From the sequence record NC_054909.1: a stretch of DNA of 64,000 bases. One strand, 5' to 3'. Source of the DNA: Escherichia phage EC121. The notes beneath the pieces are model-generated. The model was given only the letters and a program-made list of their open reading frames with translations, did not search any database and had not been told where the DNA came from. Positions 1,975-45,588 of the stretch are shown one piece after another (the stretch's first letter is position 1; each line of letters begins with the position of its first letter). The position numbers were made by a program, and so were the translations under genes.

Positions 1975-2025
1975 CACTATATCCTTAATTCTTTAATTCT
2001 ATATGCCCTAGGTTAAACATAGGGA

Positions 2026-2033
2026 TATAAATA
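2026..2033 (+). promoter_or_regulatory. T4-type late promoter motif TATAAATA upstream of gene 19
   Basis: Exact TATAAATA 15 nt upstream of GAGG and the ATG at 2048. Confidence 0.55.
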
Positions 2034-2047
2034 CTACAGAGGCTAAT

Positions 2048-2539
2048 ATGTTTGTAGATGATGTAACACGAGCGTTTGAATCTGGTGATTTTGCTCGACC
2101 TAACTTATTCCAAGTAGAAATTTCTTATCTTGGACAAAATTTTACGTTTCAATGCAAAGCCACTGCTTTACCAGCTGGTATTGTAGAAAAAATTCCAGTC
2201 GGATTTATGAACCGTAAAATTAACGTAGCAGGCGATCGTACATTCGATGACTGGACTGTTACAGTAATGAACGATGAGGCACATGATGCTCGCCAGAAGT
2301 TTGTTGATTGGCAAAGCATTGCTGCTGGGCAAGGGAACGAAATTACTGGTGGAAAACCAGCAGAGTATAAAAAGAGCGCTGTTGTTCGCCAATACGCTCG
2401 TGATGCTAAAACAGTAACAAAAGAAATTGAAATTAAAGGTCTATGGCCTACTAACGTTGGTGAACTTCAATTAGATTGGGATTCAAACAATGAAATCCAA
2501 ACATTTGAAGTAACTCTTGCTCTCGATTATTGGGAATAA
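2048..2539 (+). CDS. 19: Tail tube protein gp19
   Basis: 163-aa ORF; sequence and position match T4 gp19. Confidence 0.93.
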   Translation: MFVDDVTRAFESGDFARPNLFQVEISYLGQNFTFQCKATALPAGIVEKIPVGFMNRKINVAGDRTFDDWTVTVMNDEAHDARQKFVDWQSIAAGQGNEITGGKPAEYKKSAVVRQYARDAKTVTKEIEIKGLWPTNVGELQLDWDSNNEIQTFEVTLALDYWE

Positions 2540-2544
2540 AATGA

Positions 2545-4196
<1,652 letters not shown>

Positions 4197-12745: not shown

Positions 12746-12794
12746 AATATTTCCTCAGTATAAATATAGATATATTTATTACTCGGAAAATAGT

Positions 12795-13412
12795 ATGTAC
12801 CACTTTGTATATGAAACAACAAATCTAATAAATGGTAAAAAGTATATAGGAAAACACTCTACTGATGACTTGAATGATGGTTACCTTGGTTCCGGTAAGG
12901 CAATTCAGCAGGCTATAAAGAAATATGGTGAAAACAATTTCTCTAGAACAATACTAAAAGAGTTTAAAACTTCCGAAGAAGCGTACATGTATGAAGAAGA
13001 AATTATAACTCCTGAACTAATAAAAAGCAAAAATTATTATAATATGAAACCTGGTGGAATTGGTGGAATTGTTATGACTGCAGAGGTTATAGCAAAGATG
13101 AAAGAATCTTCCGCTAAGAGATTTGAAAACTCACCGGGCACGGTATTAGGTACAACTTGTTACACTAATGGAACTAAAAATATTTTTATTAAACCTGGAG
13201 AACTTGTTCCAGAAGGATTTGTAAAAGGGATGGTTCATCTTAATAGAAAGTCCAGAAAAGGATGTAAAGTCAAACCGACTACCACAGGAACTTTTTGGGT
13301 CAATAATGGAGCAATAAATAAATTAATACAACCAGACGGTATTATTCCCGACGGATTTATTAAAGGTCGTCTCATGAAAAGAGACTCTAAAGGCAAATTT
13401 AGTAAGGCATAA
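12795..13412 (+). CDS. segE: GIY-YIG homing endonuclease of the Seg family (T4 SegE position)
   Basis: N-terminal GIY-YIG-type motif (HFVYETTNLINGKKYIGKH); free-standing between inh and uvsW, where segE lies in T4. Confidence 0.75.
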   Translation: MYHFVYETTNLINGKKYIGKHSTDDLNDGYLGSGKAIQQAIKKYGENNFSRTILKEFKTSEEAYMYEEEIITPELIKSKNYYNMKPGGIGGIVMTAEVIAKMKESSAKRFENSPGTVLGTTCYTNGTKNIFIKPGELVPEGFVKGMVHLNRKSRKGCKVKPTTTGTFWVNNGAINKLIQPDGIIPDGFIKGRLMKRDSKGKFSKA

Positions 13413-13414
13413 TT

Positions 13415-14923
13415 ATGGATATTAAAGTACATTTTCACGACTTCAGTCATGTACGCATCGATTGTGAAGAGAGCACGTTCCACGAATTAAGAGATTTCTT
13501 TTCGTTTGAGGCCGATGGATATAGGTTTAATCCTCGCTTCAGATATGGCAACTGGGATGGACGAATCCGTCTTTTAGATTATAATCGCCTTCTTCCATTC
13601 GGTTTAGTCGGGCAAATTAAAAAGTTCTGTGATAACTTTGGCTATAAAGCCTGGATTGACCCGCAAATTAACGAAAAAGAAGAATTATCAAGAAAAGATT
13701 TTGATGAATGGCTTTCTAAATTAGAAATCTATTCAGGAAATAAAAGAATTGAACCGCATTGGTATCAAAAAGATGCAGTGTTCGAAGGATTAGTTAATCG
13801 TCGTAGAATTCTTAATCTTCCAACATCCGCAGGTAAATCTTTAATTCAAGCTTTGCTTGCTCGGTATTATTTGGAAAATTATGAAGGTAAAATTCTTATC
13901 ATTGTTCCAACAACTGCTCTGACAACTCAGATGGCTGATGACTTTGTTGACTATCGTTTATTCAGTCATGCAATGATAAAGAAAATCGGCGGTGGAGCAT
14001 CAAAAGATGATAAATATAAAAATGATGCACCAGTCGTTGTTGGTACATGGCAAACTGTAGTAAAACAACCGAAAGAATGGTTCTCACAGTTTGGAATGAT
14101 GATGAATGATGAATGTCATCTTGCTACAGGAAAAAGTATTTCATCTATCATATCAGGTTTAAATAACTGTATGTTTAAATTTGGTTTGTCTGGTTCATTA
14201 CGTGATGGCAAAGCTAATATCATGCAGTATGTTGGAATGTTTGGCGAAATATTTAAGCCAGTAACGACTTCTAAATTAATGGAAGATGGACAAGTAACTG
14301 AGTTAAAAATTAATAGTATTTTTCTTCGCTATCCCGATGAGTTCACTACTAAATTAAAGGGAAAAACTTACCAAGAAGAAATAAAAATTATTACTGGACT
14401 CAGTAAAAGAAATAAATGGATCGCTAAATTAGCTATTAAGCTTGCACAAAAAGATGAAAACGCTTTTGTCATGTTTAAACACGTATCGCACGGTAAAGCT
14501 ATTTTCGATTTAATTAAAAATGAATACGATAAAGTTTATTACGTATCAGGGGAAGTTGATACCGAAACACGCAACGTAATGAAAACCTTAGCTGAAAACG
14601 GTAAAGGAATAATTATAGTAGCTAGTTATGGTGTATTTTCTACTGGTATTTCAGTTAAAAATCTGCATCACGTTGTTTTAGCGCACGGTGTTAAATCAAA
14701 AATCATTGTATTACAAACAATCGGTCGTGTATTACGTAAGCACGGTTCTAAGACAATAGCAACGGTCTGGGACCTCATAGATGACGCGGGCGTAGTTTCT
14801 AAATCAAAAACATCTTCTAAAAAATACTCGCATTTAAACTATCTTTTAAAACATGGACTTGATCGTATTCAGCGTTATGCTGATGAGAAGTTTAATTATG
14901 TGATGAAAGAGGTTAAACTTTGA
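13415..14923 (+). CDS. uvsW: UvsW DNA/RNA helicase
   Basis: 502-aa ORF with helicase motifs (LPTSAGKS Walker A, DECH box). Confidence 0.92.
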   Translation: MDIKVHFHDFSHVRIDCEESTFHELRDFFSFEADGYRFNPRFRYGNWDGRIRLLDYNRLLPFGLVGQIKKFCDNFGYKAWIDPQINEKEELSRKDFDEWLSKLEIYSGNKRIEPHWYQKDAVFEGLVNRRRILNLPTSAGKSLIQALLARYYLENYEGKILIIVPTTALTTQMADDFVDYRLFSHAMIKKIGGGASKDDKYKNDAPVVVGTWQTVVKQPKEWFSQFGMMMNDECHLATGKSISSIISGLNNCMFKFGLSGSLRDGKANIMQYVGMFGEIFKPVTTSKLMEDGQVTELKINSIFLRYPDEFTTKLKGKTYQEEIKIITGLSKRNKWIAKLAIKLAQKDENAFVMFKHVSHGKAIFDLIKNEYDKVYYVSGEVDTETRNVMKTLAENGKGIIIVASYGVFSTGISVKNLHHVVLAHGVKSKIIVLQTIGRVLRKHGSKTIATVWDLIDDAGVVSKSKTSSKKYSHLNYLLKHGLDRIQRYADEKFNYVMKEVKL

Positions 14924-15612
14924 ATTATAAATTAATATACGATAATTTAATTAATAGAGCCCAGAATCGGGCTCGCCTTAATGGATACACTGAAACTCAT
15001 CATATAATTCCTAGATGTATGGGCGGTACAGATGATAAGTGTAATTTGGTAGAACTAACAGCTGAAGAGCATTTTATAGCTCATAAACTTTTAGCTAAAA
15101 TTCATCCAAACCATTACGGTATAATTAAAGCCGTTATATGTATGGGGATGAATTCAAAGACTCATGAAAGACACGTTAATAAATCTTACGCCTGGGAACG
15201 TCGTAAAATGGCAGAACTTCAATCAGGTGAAGGTAATCCATTTTACGGAAAACACCATACGGAAGAACATAAACAATATATGTCAAAACTCATGAAAAAT
15301 CGTCCAATTACATGGGGAAGTAAAATTAGTAAAACTAAAAGAATGAACCCAACAAAATGGACTGAAGAAGCTAAAAGATTGCATTCTATCAATCAATCAG
15401 GTAAAAATAATGGCATGTATGGAAGGAAACATTCCGCTAAATCTATTCAGAAAATTAAAGATAATATGCCAGATAATTCAGGAGCTAATAACCCAGCTGC
15501 TAAACCTATAGAAGTAAATGGTGTTAAGTATAAATGTATGAAAGATGCTTCTAAAGCTACTGGATTATCAATGTACAAACTAAGAATACTTAGAAAAACA
15601 GTTAATTTATAA
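14920..15612 (+). CDS. HNH homing endonuclease, MobE-like paralog, inserted between uvsW and uvsW.1
   Basis: 230-aa ORF; N-terminus closely resembles the mobE product in this window; HNH core ETHHIIPRCMGG...NLVELTAEEHFIAH; apparent TTG start at 14920 overlapping the uvsW TGA, with AAGAGG 7 nt upstream. Confidence 0.75.
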   Translation: MNYKLIYDNLINRAQNRARLNGYTETHHIIPRCMGGTDDKCNLVELTAEEHFIAHKLLAKIHPNHYGIIKAVICMGMNSKTHERHVNKSYAWERRKMAELQSGEGNPFYGKHHTEEHKQYMSKLMKNRPITWGSKISKTKRMNPTKWTEEAKRLHSINQSGKNNGMYGRKHSAKSIQKIKDNMPDNSGANNPAAKPIEVNGVKYKCMKDASKATGLSMYKLRILRKTVNL

Positions 15613-15626
15613 GGGCTTCGGCCCTT
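15611..15626 (+). terminator. UUCG-loop hairpin between the HNH gene and uvsW.1
   Basis: AAGGGC-TTCG-GCCCTT immediately after the HNH stop and before the uvsW.1 ribosome-binding site. Confidence 0.45.
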
Positions 15627-15637
15627 TGGAGAAAAAG

Positions 15638-15868
15638 ATGTTACTAGAATTTAAACAATTTCTTTATGAAGCTTCTATTGATGAATTTATGGGTAAAATT
15701 GCCTCTTGTCAAACATTAGAAGGTTTAGAAGAACTTGAAGCTTATTATAAGAAAAGAGTCAAAGAAACTGAATTAAAAGATACTGATGACATCTCCGTGA
15801 GAGATGCTTTGGCAGGAAAAAGAGCTGAATTAGAAGATTCAGACGATGAAGTAGAAGAAAGCTTTTAA
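15638..15868 (+). CDS. uvsW.1: UvsW.1 small acidic protein
   Basis: Start moved to ATG at 15638 (MLLEFKQFLYEA..., 76 aa as in T4); supplied ORF begins at an upstream TTG. Confidence 0.85.
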   Translation: MLLEFKQFLYEASIDEFMGKIASCQTLEGLEELEAYYKKRVKETELKDTDDISVRDALAGKRAELEDSDDEVEESF

Positions 15869-15877
15869 ATTAAAAAA

Positions 15878-15900
15878 GGCCCAACCAAAAAGGAAGGGCC
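15878..15900. terminator. Imperfect hairpin between convergent uvsW.1 and uvsY.-2
   Basis: GGCCC...GGGCC inverted repeat with an internal A-rich loop. Confidence 0.3.
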
Positions 15901-15923
15901 AAAACTATAGACTAAAGGTCACA

Positions 15924-16091
15924 CTATAGCAAAAGTTGTGTTTCATTTAATTGTTCTTCCGAACTTTCTGAAACTGGTAGTTCTTTAATGTAATTATAGC
16001 AAGGCCCAGGATGTACAGGACCTTTGTCTGTTTCAACAACCAATGCAGAATCGATTGGAGTTTTACAGACAACACAAATCTTATCTGACAT
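15924..16091 (-). CDS. Small Cys-containing protein (T4 uvsY.-2 position)
   Basis: 55-aa minus-strand ORF translated by hand (MSDKICVVCKTPIDS...PCYNY...), AGAGGAG Shine-Dalgarno upstream; below the ORF-track length cutoff. Confidence 0.55.
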   Translation of the reverse strand: MSDKICVVCKTPIDSALVVETDKGPVHPGPCYNYIKELPVSESSEEQLNETQLLL

Positions 16092-16119
16092 GATTGTCTC
16101 CTCTGAATTATATATCTAT

Positions 16120-41414: not shown

Positions 41415-42593
41415 TTAAAAGTATTTTTTAAAACTCATCATAACTTTATCATCAACATCATTATCAATCTGTGCAACAAGATAAGATGACAGTTCTACTT
41501 CTTGCGGCGCGGATTGAACATTATCAGAATTAAGGTATTCACGAATCCAAGGATATGGATGTTTAACCGGAGCATCGGTAATCGGGCATGGAAGACCACA
41601 CTGTTTCATACGAGATACAGTTAAGTAATCAATAAAGCTCCACATGCTATTTGTATTTAATCCAGGAACATCGCCATCTTTAAATAAATGAACTGCCCAA
41701 TCTTTTTCTTGACGGTTAACTTCCATGAAAATATCAACTGCTTCTTGTTCACACTCTTTGGCAATTTTAACCCATTCATCGCCATCAGTACCAGATTGAA
41801 GTTGACGAATAATATATTGTGTACCTTTAAGATGAAGCTGCTCATCACGTGCAATAAATTTCATAATCTTCGCATTACCTTCCATGATTTCCATGTTCTT
41901 ATGGAAGTTGAAAGTACATGCAAAGGATACATAAAAACGAATAGCTTCCAGAGCATTGATAACGTGCAGACAGAGATAAAGCGACTTCATCAGGTCTCGT
42001 TTACATTCTTCCAAATGAGTGAGACTGTTTGAATATGCTTCTAAATCATATTCATTTTCAGCAAAATAACTAAAGTTTTCTTTGGCGTTTTCCCAAATAC
42101 GTGTCTTGTCCAGAACATCATCATAATAACGACCCATAGATTCAGCACGTTTCATGATAGCTTTATCTAATACAATCTCATCAAATACCCTTGACGGATC
42201 AGTATAAAGATTTCGCATAATATGAGTGTATGAACGACTGTGAATAGTTTCACTAAAAGTCCATGTAGCAACCCATGTATCAAGGCTTGGGTCTGAAATC
42301 AATGACATAAGTACAGCAGACGGTGCACGACCCTGAATGCTATCCAGAAGTGATTGATACTTCAGATTATTAGTAAAAATATTCTGCTGATATTGAGGAA
42401 GCTTATTAAACTGTGCAGCATCCATCATTAAGTTTACTTCTTCAGGACGCCAGAAAAATGATAATTGCTTTTCGGTCAAATCTTCAAAAACTTTATGGCG
42501 TTGAATATCATAACGCGCAATACCAAGACCTGAACCAAAAAACATAGGTTCTTTTAAAACATCAACTGGATTTGTATTAAAAACTGTAGACAT
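41415..42593 (-). CDS. nrdB: Ribonucleotide reductase small subunit NrdB, uninterrupted
   Basis: Continuous 392-codon frame from ATG at 42593 (MSTVFNTNPV...); no intron or I-TevIII ORF. Confidence 0.9.
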   Translation of the reverse strand: MSTVFNTNPVDVLKEPMFFGSGLGIARYDIQRHKVFEDLTEKQLSFFWRPEEVNLMMDAAQFNKLPQYQQNIFTNNLKYQSLLDSIQGRAPSAVLMSLISDPSLDTWVATWTFSETIHSRSYTHIMRNLYTDPSRVFDEIVLDKAIMKRAESMGRYYDDVLDKTRIWENAKENFSYFAENEYDLEAYSNSLTHLEECKRDLMKSLYLCLHVINALEAIRFYVSFACTFNFHKNMEIMEGNAKIMKFIARDEQLHLKGTQYIIRQLQSGTDGDEWVKIAKECEQEAVDIFMEVNRQEKDWAVHLFKDGDVPGLNTNSMWSFIDYLTVSRMKQCGLPCPITDAPVKHPYPWIREYLNSDNVQSAPQEVELSSYLVAQIDNDVDDKVMMSFKKYF

Positions 42594-43324
42594 TAATTTT
42601 TCCTCTTTAAAATTCTGCCGCGTTTCCAACCTGGCGGTATAATATCATCTTTACCTATAAGCGTGCATTCACTTCCATTATTAATCCATTTCTTACCGCG
42701 GATTCCTTTATAATCTCTTGGTTGTATTTTGTCAAACTTTGCATCAGGTTGATATGCCCATCTAAATCCATAGGCATATTGAAATTTACCCTCAGCACAA
42801 TATTTGATATTTGACCCGTTTCCATTAACTGACCTGGACGCTGCCGCAATAGAGTGAAAGGTTTCTATGAAATCCCCATCTAATGAGAATTTATGTATTT
42901 CGATAGATGGGCATGCATACCTATTCACGTTTGATACATGTCGTTTAGTTTCGTTTTTATGATGCTTGCCTAACATTCCTCTAGGATGAGGATTATTTTT
43001 CCAGTATTTCTTAAAGAAATCAGAATTAGCTTTAGCAAATAATTTTCTGTGCAAGCTATACAATCTGTTATTAATTCTATTACCAGCTTTATCTGTTGCC
43101 ATTAACGTTAACGCAGAGGCAAGCCCAAAATGGCCTTCATTTATCTTACATAGTAATAGATGCGCTATAAAATGTTCTCTAGCTGTTAATTCAACTAAAT
43201 TTTCTTTATCATCAGAACCTCCCATGCATTTAGGGACTATATGATGTGTCTCTTTATATTCGGATAAAGGTTCCCGAGCCTGAGCTCGGGAAATTAGGTC
43301 GTTATAGATTTTTTGATAATTCAT
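42593..43324 (-). CDS. mobE: HNH homing endonuclease MobE
   Basis: 243-aa ORF with HNH core (ETHHIVPKCMGG...NLVELTAREHFIAH); between nrdA and nrdB as in T4; start and stop overlap its neighbours (TAATG at both ends). Confidence 0.8.
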   Translation of the reverse strand: MNYQKIYNDLISRAQAREPLSEYKETHHIVPKCMGGSDDKENLVELTAREHFIAHLLLCKINEGHFGLASALTLMATDKAGNRINNRLYSLHRKLFAKANSDFFKKYWKNNPHPRGMLGKHHKNETKRHVSNVNRYACPSIEIHKFSLDGDFIETFHSIAAASRSVNGNGSNIKYCAEGKFQYAYGFRWAYQPDAKFDKIQPRDYKGIRGKKWINNGSECTLIGKDDIIPPGWKRGRILKRKN

Positions 43325-45588
43325 TACAATTTACACGCTGCACAATCGTCGGCTTTTGGAGTTTCTATTTCATAATCATCAGTACCGGAACCATCACGGG
43401 TATTATGATAATAGAAATTTTTAATGCCATAATACCATCCGTATAGCATATCATCAATCATTATTGACATTGGAACCTTTCCTTTTGGAAAAATCTGCGG
43501 GTCATAATATGTATTCGCTGAAGCTGATTGACATACCCATTTAAGCATAATAGCTACCTGCGTAAGATAAGGTTTATTACCTTTCTTAGCTAATTTCCAT
43601 GTATAATCATAGAGGTCTATGTTATGTTCAATATTGGGCACGACTTGATTAAAGGAACCCTCTTTTGATTCTTTAACAGAGACTGGTCCACGTGGAGGCT
43701 CGATACCGTTTGTACTGTTAGAAACTTGGGAAGATGACTCACATGGCATAAGTGCTGATAATGTGCTATTACGGATGCCAAAGAGCTTAAGGTCTTCCCG
43801 CAGCTCCGACCAGTCACAAACGTATTTTGGAGCTGCGATTTGGTCAATCTTTTTATTGTACCAGTCGATAGGTAATTCGCCTCGAGACCAACGAGTGTCT
43901 GAATAATATTCGCAAGGTCCTTTTTCTTTGGCGAGCTTAATGGATGCTTTAATGAGCCCATACTGTAATCTCTCAAATAGTTCATGTGTTAAATCGTTAG
44001 CATCTTCATAAGAAGCAAAGTTACTTGCCAGCCAAGCTGCATAGTTAGTAACACCTACGCCAAGGTTTCGACGCTTTTTAGCTTTTTCTGCTTCAGGAAC
44101 TGGATATCCTTGGTAATCCAAAAGATTATCAAGAGCGCGAACTTGAACTTCTGCTAATTCATTAATTTTATCTTGGTCTTGCCAATCAAAGTTATCCAAC
44201 ACAAATGCAGATAACGTGCACAATCCAATTTCAGCATCAGGACTATTCACATCATTTGTTGGAATAGCAATTTCACAACACAGGTTACTCTGACGAATCG
44301 GTGCCTTTTCACGAATAAATGGAGTATAGTTATTCGTATTATCAATGAACTGTACATAAATCCTTGCTGTTCCTGAGCGTTCAGTCATGAGCAATTCAAA
44401 CAGTTCACGGGCTTTAATACGCTTTTTACGAATATTAGGGTCTTTTTCTGCAGCTTCGTATAATTCACGGAAACGGTCTTGGTCTTTAAAATAAGAATAA
44501 TAAAGCTCGCCACCCATTTCATGCGGACTGAACAAAGTAATGTAGTCGTTCTTTCCGAATCGTTCCATCATCAAATCATTCAGCTGGACACCATAATCCA
44601 TATGGCGGATACGGTTTTCTTCTACGCCTTTGTTATTTTTCAAAACGAGAAGATTTTCAACTTCCAAATGCCAAATAGGATAATAAGCAGTAGCAGCGCC
44701 GCCACGAATTCCACCCTGTGAGCATGATTTAACAGCAGTCTGAAAATGTTTCCAAAAAGGAATAACACCAGTATGGCGTACTTCACCTGTGCCAATCTTA
44801 GAACCTTCGGCACGAATCATACCAACGTTAATACCAATTCCAGCGCGTTTGGAGATATATTCAACAATTGAAGCGGAAGCCTTATTGATAGACTTCAGCG
44901 AATCACCTGCTTCAATAACAACGCATGAACTAAACTGCCGGGTTGGAGTACGACATCCAGCCATAATAGGAGTTGGCAATGAAATCTGTCGAGTAGATAC
45001 CGCTTCATAAAAACGGATAACGTGTTTTAATCTATCAACAGGTTCATCTTGATGCAATGCCATTCCAATAGTCATAAATGCAAACTGTGGAGTTTCATAA
45101 ATTTGACCAGTGGTTTTATCTTTAACTAGATATTTTTCTTTTAATTGCATCGCCCCGGAATAAGTAAATTCCATATCCCGTTCATGCTTAATTTTTGATT
45201 CTAAAAATGTAATTTCTTCTGCTGAATATTTTGACAACAATTCAGGGTCATATTTACCTTCATTTACGCAGTAAGAAATATGGTCAATAAATGAACGTGG
45301 TTCATACTGTCCATAAACATGCTTACGAAGAGCGAACATTAAACAGCGTGCAGCTACGTATTGATAATCAGGCTCTTCAACTGAAATAGAATTCGCAGCA
45401 GCCTTAATTACAATGGTTTGAATGTCATCAGTTGTCATTCCATCACGGAGATATGATTTAATATTTTCATATAATTCATAAGGATCTACTGATGTTCCTT
45501 CAGCTGCCCAAGATAAAACTTTAATAATTTTTTGTGGGTCAAAGCTCTGAGAAACACCACTACTTTTGATAACATTAATTAATTGCAT
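43324..45588 (-). CDS. nrdA: Ribonucleotide reductase large subunit NrdA
   Basis: 754-aa ORF matching T4 NrdA. Confidence 0.95.
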   Translation of the reverse strand: MQLINVIKSSGVSQSFDPQKIIKVLSWAAEGTSVDPYELYENIKSYLRDGMTTDDIQTIVIKAAANSISVEEPDYQYVAARCLMFALRKHVYGQYEPRSFIDHISYCVNEGKYDPELLSKYSAEEITFLESKIKHERDMEFTYSGAMQLKEKYLVKDKTTGQIYETPQFAFMTIGMALHQDEPVDRLKHVIRFYEAVSTRQISLPTPIMAGCRTPTRQFSSCVVIEAGDSLKSINKASASIVEYISKRAGIGINVGMIRAEGSKIGTGEVRHTGVIPFWKHFQTAVKSCSQGGIRGGAATAYYPIWHLEVENLLVLKNNKGVEENRIRHMDYGVQLNDLMMERFGKNDYITLFSPHEMGGELYYSYFKDQDRFRELYEAAEKDPNIRKKRIKARELFELLMTERSGTARIYVQFIDNTNNYTPFIREKAPIRQSNLCCEIAIPTNDVNSPDAEIGLCTLSAFVLDNFDWQDQDKINELAEVQVRALDNLLDYQGYPVPEAEKAKKRRNLGVGVTNYAAWLASNFASYEDANDLTHELFERLQYGLIKASIKLAKEKGPCEYYSDTRWSRGELPIDWYNKKIDQIAAPKYVCDWSELREDLKLFGIRNSTLSALMPCESSSQVSNSTNGIEPPRGPVSVKESKEGSFNQVVPNIEHNIDLYDYTWKLAKKGNKPYLTQVAIMLKWVCQSASANTYYDPQIFPKGKVPMSIMIDDMLYGWYYGIKNFYYHNTRDGSGTDDYEIETPKADDCAACKL

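Follow-up and report, generated by a model that had tools for sequence, protein, structure and literature searches.

The closest characterised relative of the gene described here is mobE of bacteriophage T4, which lies between nrdA and nrdB and encodes a mobile HNH endonuclease that nicks the downstream nrdB gene at nucleotides (nt) 122-126 (Wilson & Edgell 2009, PMC2790892). Promoterless mob cassettes rely on upstream transcription (PMC2988022, PMC2790892); the start codon of mobE overlaps the nrdA stop in the sequence UAAUGA (PMC2988022), a hairpin within the coding region terminates 30-50% of transcripts, and deletion of MobE residues 33-62 abolishes nicking (PMC2790892). Insertion within, or at the border of, an essential gene of DNA metabolism has been described for mobE, which splits nrdA in phage Aeh1, and for mobA with gene 60/39 in T4, and in these cases compensating sequence keeps the host gene functional (PMC2988022). 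An enzyme of another type, the free-standing GIY-YIG endonuclease SegE, is entered in Table 1 of the T4 mobile-element review as encoded between inh and uvsW with its target in uvsW (Kadyrov 1997, in PMC2988022); that review covers the T4 set only. Here we present an analysis of an HNH homing-endonuclease open reading frame (ORF) at the 3' end of uvsW in Escherichia phage EC121 (NC_054909.1). Coordinates refer to the window, which is the whole 64,000-nt stretch that was analyzed, with position 1 as its first letter, and to the + strand unless marked (-). The gene is best explained as a free-standing cassette of the MobE (HNH) family which recombined into the extreme 3' end of uvsW and which has a homing mechanism, a reading to which we give a probability of about 0.75.

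The original prediction, made from the sequence alone, had placed an ORF between uvsW and uvsW.1, and ORF listing and Pfam searches confirmed it. The uvsW helicase gene (13415-14923; 502 codons; Pfam UvsW_N 8e-44, ResIII, DEAD and Helicase_C) is followed by the HNH ORF (14920-15612; 693 bp, 230 aa) and then by uvsW.1 (15638-15868; 76 codons; Pfam UvsW-1 1.5e-30). The TTG start codon of the HNH ORF (14920-14922) overlaps the uvsW TGA (14921-14923) in a TTGA motif and is preceded by the Shine-Dalgarno (SD) sequence AAGAGG (14907-14912), which lies 7 nt upstream; the frame closes with TAA at 15610-15612. Insertion endpoints were determined from BLAST matches and MAFFT breakpoints using 11 carriers and 10 empty sites, the latter comprising re-sequenced T4 and nine other Tequatroviruses. 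At all ten empty sites uvsW ends in ...ATG AAA ACA GTT AAT TTA TAA and is followed by GGGCTTCGGCCCTTTGGAGAAAAAGATG with uvsW.1. Relative to T4, RB3, RB32 and others, 689 bp of inserted DNA (14909-15597) begins directly after ...ATGAAA of uvsW, with boundaries that shift by a 3-nt AAA microhomology such that 14906-15594 is an equivalent placement.

The nucleotide alignment of this junction, proposed with the original prediction, thus put the endpoints inside the last codons of uvsW, and the insert does not sit exactly between the two genes as had been claimed. Inserted DNA supplies a replacement uvsW tail (14909-14923; GAG GTT AAA CTT TGA, encoding E V K L stop) for the native ACA GTT AAT TTA TAA (T V N L stop), so that the protein ends in KTVNL at empty sites and in KEVKL in carriers, and uvsW still has 502 codons although four sense codons and the stop at its end have been replaced. 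At 15595-15612 the native tail AAA ACA GTT AAT TTA TAA closes the HNH ORF, to which it contributes five sense codons and the stop; its sequence is the one found at the end of uvsW in the empty-site phages examined. The insert thus has a copy of the uvsW tail at either side, the two copies being diverged. Unlike the split genes of Aeh1 and T4, uvsW remains unsplit. Since the HNH ORF ends in the original uvsW tail and stop, the C(UUCG)G hairpin GGGCTTCGGCCC directly 3' of this stop (15613-15624) and the initiation region of uvsW.1, including its SD GGAG (15628-15631), are untouched. Both elements had been predicted, the ribosome-binding site as a fresh one acquired with the gene; both are present, but neither is part of the insert, and they are identical in the 10 aligned phages with empty sites. 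The translation-initiation context of uvsW.1 is therefore unchanged. It is the substitute tail which creates the initiation signals of the HNH ORF, with AAGAGG arising from AAA GAG G in place of AAA ACA G, and TTG from CTT TGA in place of TTA TAA.

With respect to the T4 reference, the records NC_000866 (4185-4195 of the locus) and AF158101 read AATTTAATAAGCTTCGG at this junction, where every other phage reads AATTTATAAGGGCTTCGG (compared with OZ035787). A sequence error at the T4 uvsW/uvsW.1 junction is known (PMC1524935), and the fused 587-codon uvsW annotated in the T4 RefSeq record is explained by this old error, which falls exactly at the junction.

The product of the HNH ORF was compared by BLASTP with the product of the window mobE gene, which was confirmed at the predicted location, directly after nrdA (43324-45588) and before nrdB, at 42593-43324 (-). 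The parallel N-terminus noted in the original prediction was borne out, with 63 of 134 residues identical (47%, E = 6e-35), far above chance level; the match was confined to the N-terminal half. The HNH domain so aligned has the H-H...N...H...H motif of T4 MobE, and there is no similarity past residue ~134. Residues 33-62, the segment which is essential for nicking by MobE, align with MobE 33-62 at 23 of 30 identical positions (hand count from the BLASTP alignment). A PHROGs search assigned the product to phrog_655, 'homing endonuclease' (1.6e-61).

To define the conserved core, 32 diverse homologs drawn from a search of 5.8 billion proteins were aligned. Y3, Y23, E25, H28, P31, C33, G36, N42, L46, E50, H51, A54 and H55 were invariant, and H27 was conserved in at least 90% of the homologs. 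The pattern of H27/H28 (14998-15003), N42 (15043-15045), H51 (15070-15072) and H55 (15082-15084) is that of the HH...N...H...H arrangement of HNH nucleases, and these are candidate catalytic residues. The HNH core that had been claimed is therefore present (residues 23-58; 14986-15093), and proper alignment retained the catalytic positions as invariant or nearly so. The family profile matched the McrA HNH domain (E = 3.8e-4) and the HNH domain of a group II intron maturase (E = 0.0078). An AlphaFold2 model had a mean predicted local distance difference test score (pLDDT) of 84.4, with values above 92 for residues 1-70, and placed strands at 25-28 and 43-46 and a helix at 48-61, an order that would fit the beta-beta-alpha core of HNH nucleases.

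The C-terminal half is of a different kind from that of MobE and carries NUMOD3 repeats and a domain resembling the DNA-binding region of I-TevI, the T4 td intron endonuclease (PDB 1I3J/1T2T). NUMOD3 exceeded its Pfam gathering score (E = 7.7e-14); Pfam gives two stretches, with coordinates listed for residues 94-122 alone (15199-15285), and the model suggests a second near residues 157-185. Residues ~154-226 (15379-15597) align with the minor-groove helix and helix-turn-helix of I-TevI, that is, a NUMOD3 helix followed by the helix-turn-helix. This was supported by the family profile (positions 154-226, E = 2.1e-6), by phmmer against 1I3J (E = 0.006) and by Foldseek, in which 1i3j was the top match (probability 1.0, E = 0.04); the structure alignments gave 27-29% identity. 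The catalytic domain is HNH in the EC121 protein and GIY-YIG in I-TevI, the gene is free-standing rather than intron-encoded, and no match to the Pfam model of the I-TevI zinc finger was obtained for the product; only one of the 32 relatives has such a match. The likeness shows the modular design of these enzymes, in which a nuclease is joined to an extended DNA-binding domain. Judged from its sequence, the HNH ORF encodes a MobE-family HNH endonuclease with an N-terminal nuclease, NUMOD3 repeats and an I-TevI-like DNA-binding domain. It is a second MobE-type enzyme in the window, as the original prediction held; its site is new only relative to T4.

A query of the insert (14930-15590) matched 47 phage records at 96.4-100% identity, all of them at the uvsW/uvsW.1 locus only. 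Carriers include T6, HY03, PST, ACG-C40, UFV-AREG1, KFS-EC3, G8, G28 and the PYPS2T group. The T4 junction was matched by ~499 Tequatrovirus-level records at 90% identity or above, nearly all of which are of approximately T4 length and hence empty, giving a carrier share of ~9% (47/~499 records, a count which includes GenBank/RefSeq duplicates). The predicted absence from T4 held, as the junction is empty in T4, T2, RB3, RB32, Shfl2 and most relatives. The description of the gene as a lineage-specific insertion did not hold, with 47 records including T6 carrying it and related genes at the junction in four other genera. The gene is thus free-standing, in the orientation of its host gene, at a fixed site and sporadic in its presence or absence, which are the traits of Mob-type genes, and like mobE it is sporadic among T-even phages. 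Within a single species of the International Committee on Taxonomy of Viruses (ICTV), PYPS2T is occupied and PYps5T is empty. These two phages are 99.5% identical over 2.9 kb starting exactly at the 3' junction of the gene, and 92.6% identical across uvsW; this jump in identity makes the right end of the element a sharp boundary of genetic exchange, a position at which homing endonuclease genes have also been described in other phages (PMC10448857).

All 11 copies examined were intact ORFs of 693 bp and differed by 35 synonymous and 8 nonsynonymous changes, giving a crude ratio of nonsynonymous to synonymous polymorphism (pN/pS) of ~0.06. On these counts the protein, residues 1-32 included, is under purifying selection. 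In the BF15 record (MW822007.1) the copy aligned 4 nt shorter (657 versus 661 nt) and its tblastn match fell in two pieces, which suggests that it is frameshifted and possibly decaying, or that the record contains a sequencing error.

Occupation of the site was accompanied by a diverged tract at the 3' end of uvsW (14788-14908), identified by comparing the 11 carriers with the 10 empty-site phages. All 29 fixed differences between the two groups fell at 14788-14902, which corresponds to the last ~45 uvsW codons and lies no more than 135 bp from the insertion point; the rest of 13415-16100 contained no fixed difference, and hence none 3' of the insert, despite 194 other polymorphic columns. The tract was present at 98.5% identity or above in exactly the 47 insert-carrying accessions. 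A distant blastn search with 14780-14925 returned nothing between 91% and 98% identity, and, with the exception of four partial recombinants, the best matches outside the carriers were 74-85% identical, such that no donor lineage was found for the tract. An arrangement in which all linked variants lie upstream and none downstream would be expected if the break were made 5' of the insertion point, as markers between the two would always be co-converted. The tract is therefore a candidate co-conversion and self-immunity tract, and the corresponding region of empty-site phages would be the likely target of the endonuclease. This differs from MobE, whose target lies in the downstream gene, since the linked polymorphisms here are in the upstream gene.

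Related genes occupy the uvsW/uvsW.1 junction in Dhakavirus, Jiaodavirus-like, Lazarusvirus and Angelvirus phages, where they have been annotated by similarity only. The ortholog in Dhakavirus UP19 (59% aa identity) resembles the EC121 gene in its position after uvsW, its NTGA overlap (TTGA, with a TTG start), its MNY N-terminus, its AAAGAGG SD and the KEV.. replacement tail of uvsW, which in UP19 ends ...MKEVQI. The UP19 ORF itself terminates in ...MKQVDL, the native uvsW tail of the empty-site Dhakavirus JS98. The possibility that a KEV.. tail is native to Dhakavirus was rejected, as JS98 ends KQVDL and the KEV.. tail is insert-linked there too. In Klebsiella phage Roth04 the ortholog is 69% identical, overlaps uvsW at ATGA and is accompanied by a uvsW tail recoded synonymously. 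The ORF stop overlaps the uvsW.1 ATG in both UP19 and Roth04. In Acinetobacter phage Lazarus and Aeromonas phage AsFcp_2, uvsW is immediately followed by a MobE-like gene that is less closely related, and here too the overlap is ATGA; Roth04, Lazarus and AsFcp_2 thus differ from EC121 in having an ATG start. Carriers are in the minority elsewhere as well: the gene is present in 13 of ~143 records of Klebsiella phages and, at the Dhakavirus level, in no more than 7 of ~54. Excess differences in the last ~150-200 nt of uvsW were also observed between UP19 and JS98 and between Roth04 and PKO111. A search for the target through positions changed in all three genus pairs was limited by the small number of pairs and by high background divergence. 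In Lazarus (2001-3079 of the locus) the HNH gene is followed directly by minus-strand genes, with no uvsW.1 annotated downstream. In the records of the Roth phages, uvsW goes under the name 'U3 small nucleolar RNA-associated SSU processome protein 25'.

How such a cassette would be expressed was considered from the signals around it. A perfect match to the T4 late-promoter consensus, TATAAATA, is found at 12759-12766, 5' of segE, and is the only perfect + strand match from there to the HNH gene; it is probably the source of a segE-uvsW-HNH-uvsW.1 transcript. No perfect TATAAATA was found in uvsW or the insert that could serve as a promoter of the cassette's own (T4 middle, MotA-dependent promoters were not scanned), and sigma-70-like matches were below shuffle expectation. 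The box TATAAATT at 14926-14933, 4 nt past the TTG, has one mismatch to the late consensus; as it lies 3' of the TTG, a transcript from it would be without the start codon, and it is probably just the codons AAT TAT AAA TT. In T4 uvsW is expressed late, and a gene transcribed with it would be expressed late as well, as is typical of T4 endonucleases.

Two predicted RNA hairpins may bear on expression. The first (14887-14921) has an 11-bp stem with arms at 14887-14897 and 14911-14921, in which the GG of the SD and the first two bases of the UUG start are paired. Its predicted free energy is -9.4 kcal/mol (z = -3.2), and none of 200 shuffled sequences folded as well. It is possible, if weakly supported, that it acts as a lineage-specific translational brake which would be opened by ribosomes finishing uvsW. 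The second, GC-rich hairpin (GAGCCC-AGAAUC-GGGCUC, 14957-14974, codons 13-19, z = -2.5) lies ~30 nt into the coding region, as in mobE. Hairpins with different stem sequences are found at the same codons in UP19, Roth04, AsFcp_2 and the window mobE (z -3.3 to -5.3), and the EC121 hairpin is, by its position, a putative homolog of the internal hairpin of T4 mobE, which is a weak terminator. The hairpin of the window mobE reads UCCCGAGC-UCAG-GCUCGGGA (43291-43268 (-), codons 12-18). Across the family the peptide encoded at the hairpin codons tracks the stem (RAQAR, RAQNRAR and RSRKAS), which suggests that nucleic-acid structure constrains the protein sequence there.

Taken together with what is known of mobE, a cycle can be proposed. 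The cassette, without a promoter of its own, would share the transcript of segE and uvsW that starts from the late promoter at 12759, and ribosomes that have just finished uvsW would translate it at a low level, through termination-reinitiation. We infer these two steps because mobE is likewise promoterless and its AUG overlaps the nrdA stop, as the UUGA does here (PMC2988022, PMC2790892). The weak start codon, the start-occluding hairpin and the 5' coding hairpin may each restrain expression. In a mixed infection the enzyme would nick or cut the insert-free allele in or beside the final ~130 bp of uvsW. Repair by recombination with the carrier genome would copy the cassette together with the adjacent diverged tract at 14788-14908, and the carrier would resist its own enzyme because its tract has other bases at those positions and its site is interrupted. 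For the HNH gene, nicking, homing and coupled translation are put forward by analogy with the characterised systems. Compared with MobE, the EC121 gene shares the absence of a promoter, the orientation of the host gene and a start overlapping the stop of an essential upstream gene, and differs in its location at the uvsW 3' end rather than between nrdA and nrdB, and in its TTG in place of ATG.

Several observations weigh against an active homing cassette and are set out here. In the literature we found no measured activity, target site or inheritance bias for the HNH protein or its orthologs. On its own the product scored 16.8 bits against Pfam HNH (PF01844; E = 0.0079), below the gathering cut-off of 21.4; 23 of the 32 family members matched PF01844 individually at E ≤ 0.01, the best at 3.5e-5, and the shortfall is one of poor model fit to a Cys-less subfamily, not evidence against homology. 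The hairpin over the SD and start is absent from the orthologs of UP19 and Roth04, and, unlike that of mobE, the hairpin at 14957-14974 has no U-tract and is a candidate terminator at most. With respect to the diverged tract, the empty-site phages OES_C-1, OES_C-2, OES_C-3 and LH2 have carrier-type sequence at 14788-14830 without the HNH gene. In OES_C-3 (2500-2644 of the locus), the one examined, the carrier-type patch VVSKSKTSSKKYS is followed by T4-type sequence from ~14836 to the end, and the other three match the tract query identically to it (91.3% over 1-126). The left patch alters 7 amino acids (VVSKSKTSSKKYS versus VKPKSANTKKKYV). These alleles indicate that the left half of the tract is separable from the gene, and the left patch may represent a uvsW allele that already existed, not a feature of immunity. 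The OES_C and LH2 alleles may be recombinants, or short conversion tracts which ended before the gene, or resistant alleles. A target in 14788-14835 would make the OES_C-type alleles resistant empty sites, and one in 14836-14923 or at the junction would leave them susceptible.

Alleles of this sort, partially diverged and possibly resistant, would also be expected if the gene were a domesticated or stranded endonuclease, which arrived by homing, homes no longer and owes its retention to ordinary selection or to its linkage with uvsW, either because susceptible targets are rare or because it has acquired a phage role, such as keeping out relatives that co-infect or acting with UvsW in the processing of recombination intermediates. 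Carriage by ~9% of records is below expectation for efficient drive, and the low pN/pS shows that the protein matters, not for what. We regard this explanation as unlikely, given that presence and absence within one species, the sharp exchange boundary at the end of the gene, complete linkage to a diverged flank and the same minority distribution in three genera are standard signatures of active homing, and that MobE is mobile (PMC2790892).

The presence of related HNH genes at the same junction in five genera points to an old association, and the gene could on that ground be an ancestral one which was deleted from most Tequatroviruses including T4, in which case the insertion would really be a retained gene. 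Such a deletion could in principle have occurred through the imperfectly repeated uvsW tail. The exact repeat is, however, only ATGAAA/AAA, too short for recurrent precise deletion, and the 10 aligned empty sites are identical at the junction, with ~450 other records of approximately T4 length. Carriers are, moreover, the minority in every genus, and the C-terminus of the ORF is the uvsW tail of its own genus (KTVNL in EC121, MKQVDL in Dhakavirus), as independent insertions would give. Ancestral retention is accordingly a distinctly improbable account.

Initiation at TTG, which had been proposed in the original prediction, was supported by comparison. The TTG is kept in all 11 Tequatrovirus copies examined, and in five lineages, EC121 and four other genera, the ORF begins with MNY on an NTGA overlap with the uvsW stop, using ATG in three and TTG in two (EC121 and UP19), such that the start position is fixed regardless of the start codon. 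The two that use TTG have the strongest SD among the five junction genes. The first ATG in frame after the TTG is codon 33 (15016), and initiation there, as annotated in W143 (2220-2813), would yield a 197-aa DNA-binding, non-nuclease protein without H27/H28. That TTG is a weak start and that this one GenBank record has the shorter ORF speak for the internal start, yet residues 1-32 are conserved in the 32 homologs (Y3, Y23, E25, H28 and P31 being invariant), most of which begin at the same MNY, three of the five junction genes have ATG at the position of the TTG, AAGAGG precedes the TTG while no SD was seen before codon 33, and only one of the eight nonsynonymous polymorphisms falls in codons 1-32, making the internal start very improbable indeed. 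Annotation of the gene as a group I intron endonuclease (G8, G28 and G2540-3) was rejected, as Rfam returned no family at E ≤ 1 for 14300-16100, phages with an empty site likewise have uvsW and uvsW.1 as two distinct ORFs, and the insert encodes a uvsW tail.

A segE-like GIY-YIG gene (12795-13412; Pfam SegE_GIY-YIG 6.6e-9) lies directly 5' of uvsW, and uvsW is therefore bracketed by two unrelated homing-endonuclease genes. SegE and the HNH gene share uvsW as host gene but belong to unrelated nuclease families, occupy opposite ends of uvsW and are present independently; G8, W143, SsoM113, RPN226 and UFV-AREG1 (5 of 10 carrier loci) have the HNH gene without segE. Between PYPS2T and PYps5T the whole segE-uvsW-HNH block differs and both flanks are similar, and the block looks like a two-endonuclease 'island' with uvsW as cargo. 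A wider and much more speculative idea is that the junction is an ancient cross-genus homing site, and that the universal split of UvsW and UvsW.1 is the scar of an early endonuclease-gene invasion, for which the split genes of Aeh1 and T4 (PMC2988022) are precedents. Were this so, the present HNH genes would be descendants still cycling at the site and, with segE, would form an island moving whole uvsW alleles between phages. A search for a fused UvsW-UvsW.1, of limited sensitivity, found all 75 UvsW.1 homologs to be stand-alone proteins of 52-96 aa, leaving the scar idea unsupported, and we consider it improbable.

Other differences between these phages were observed in passing. The uvsY.-2/uvsY.-1 interval is ~95 bp longer in HY03 (3290-3641) and e11/2 (3495-3817) than in T6 (3319-3543), and the e11/2 record has an extra 30-codon ORF in this interval; the length difference is a small indel polymorphism just past the uvsW.1 terminator. 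In the window, nrdB (41415-42629 (-)), the neighbor of mobE, appears as one uninterrupted ORF in which neither the T4 nrdB intron nor I-TevIII is in evidence, and the listed TTG-extended nrdB ORF overlaps the 3' end of mobE.

Existing GenBank and RefSeq labels for the HNH gene include 'homing endonuclease', 'MobE', 'mobD', 'NUMOD3 motif protein' and 'group I intron endonuclease'; in PST it is named mobD with the note 'MobE'. Our literature search found no paper which describes, names or characterises the HNH gene at the uvsW end, and the UFV-AREG1 genome paper passes over it. The gene is a tidy but ordinary example of the MobE family, annotated but apparently uncharacterised, and present also in T6.

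The finding does not overturn current understanding and holds no surprise for specialists. Inconsistent database annotations, including the truncated ORF of W143, are corrected by it, and the catalogue of T-even homing endonucleases gains an apparently uncharacterised MobE-family element carried by the classical phage T6. Its anatomy is unusually clean, with the last codons of the host gene replaced, the original stop borrowed and the downstream initiation region left intact. The T6 system would be well suited to asking how an HNH nickase homes, whether termination-reinitiation at a UUG limits its dose, and what the hairpin in the 5' coding region of mob genes does. The gene also shows that, in T4-like phages, shuffling of uvsW alleles takes place between two endonuclease genes.

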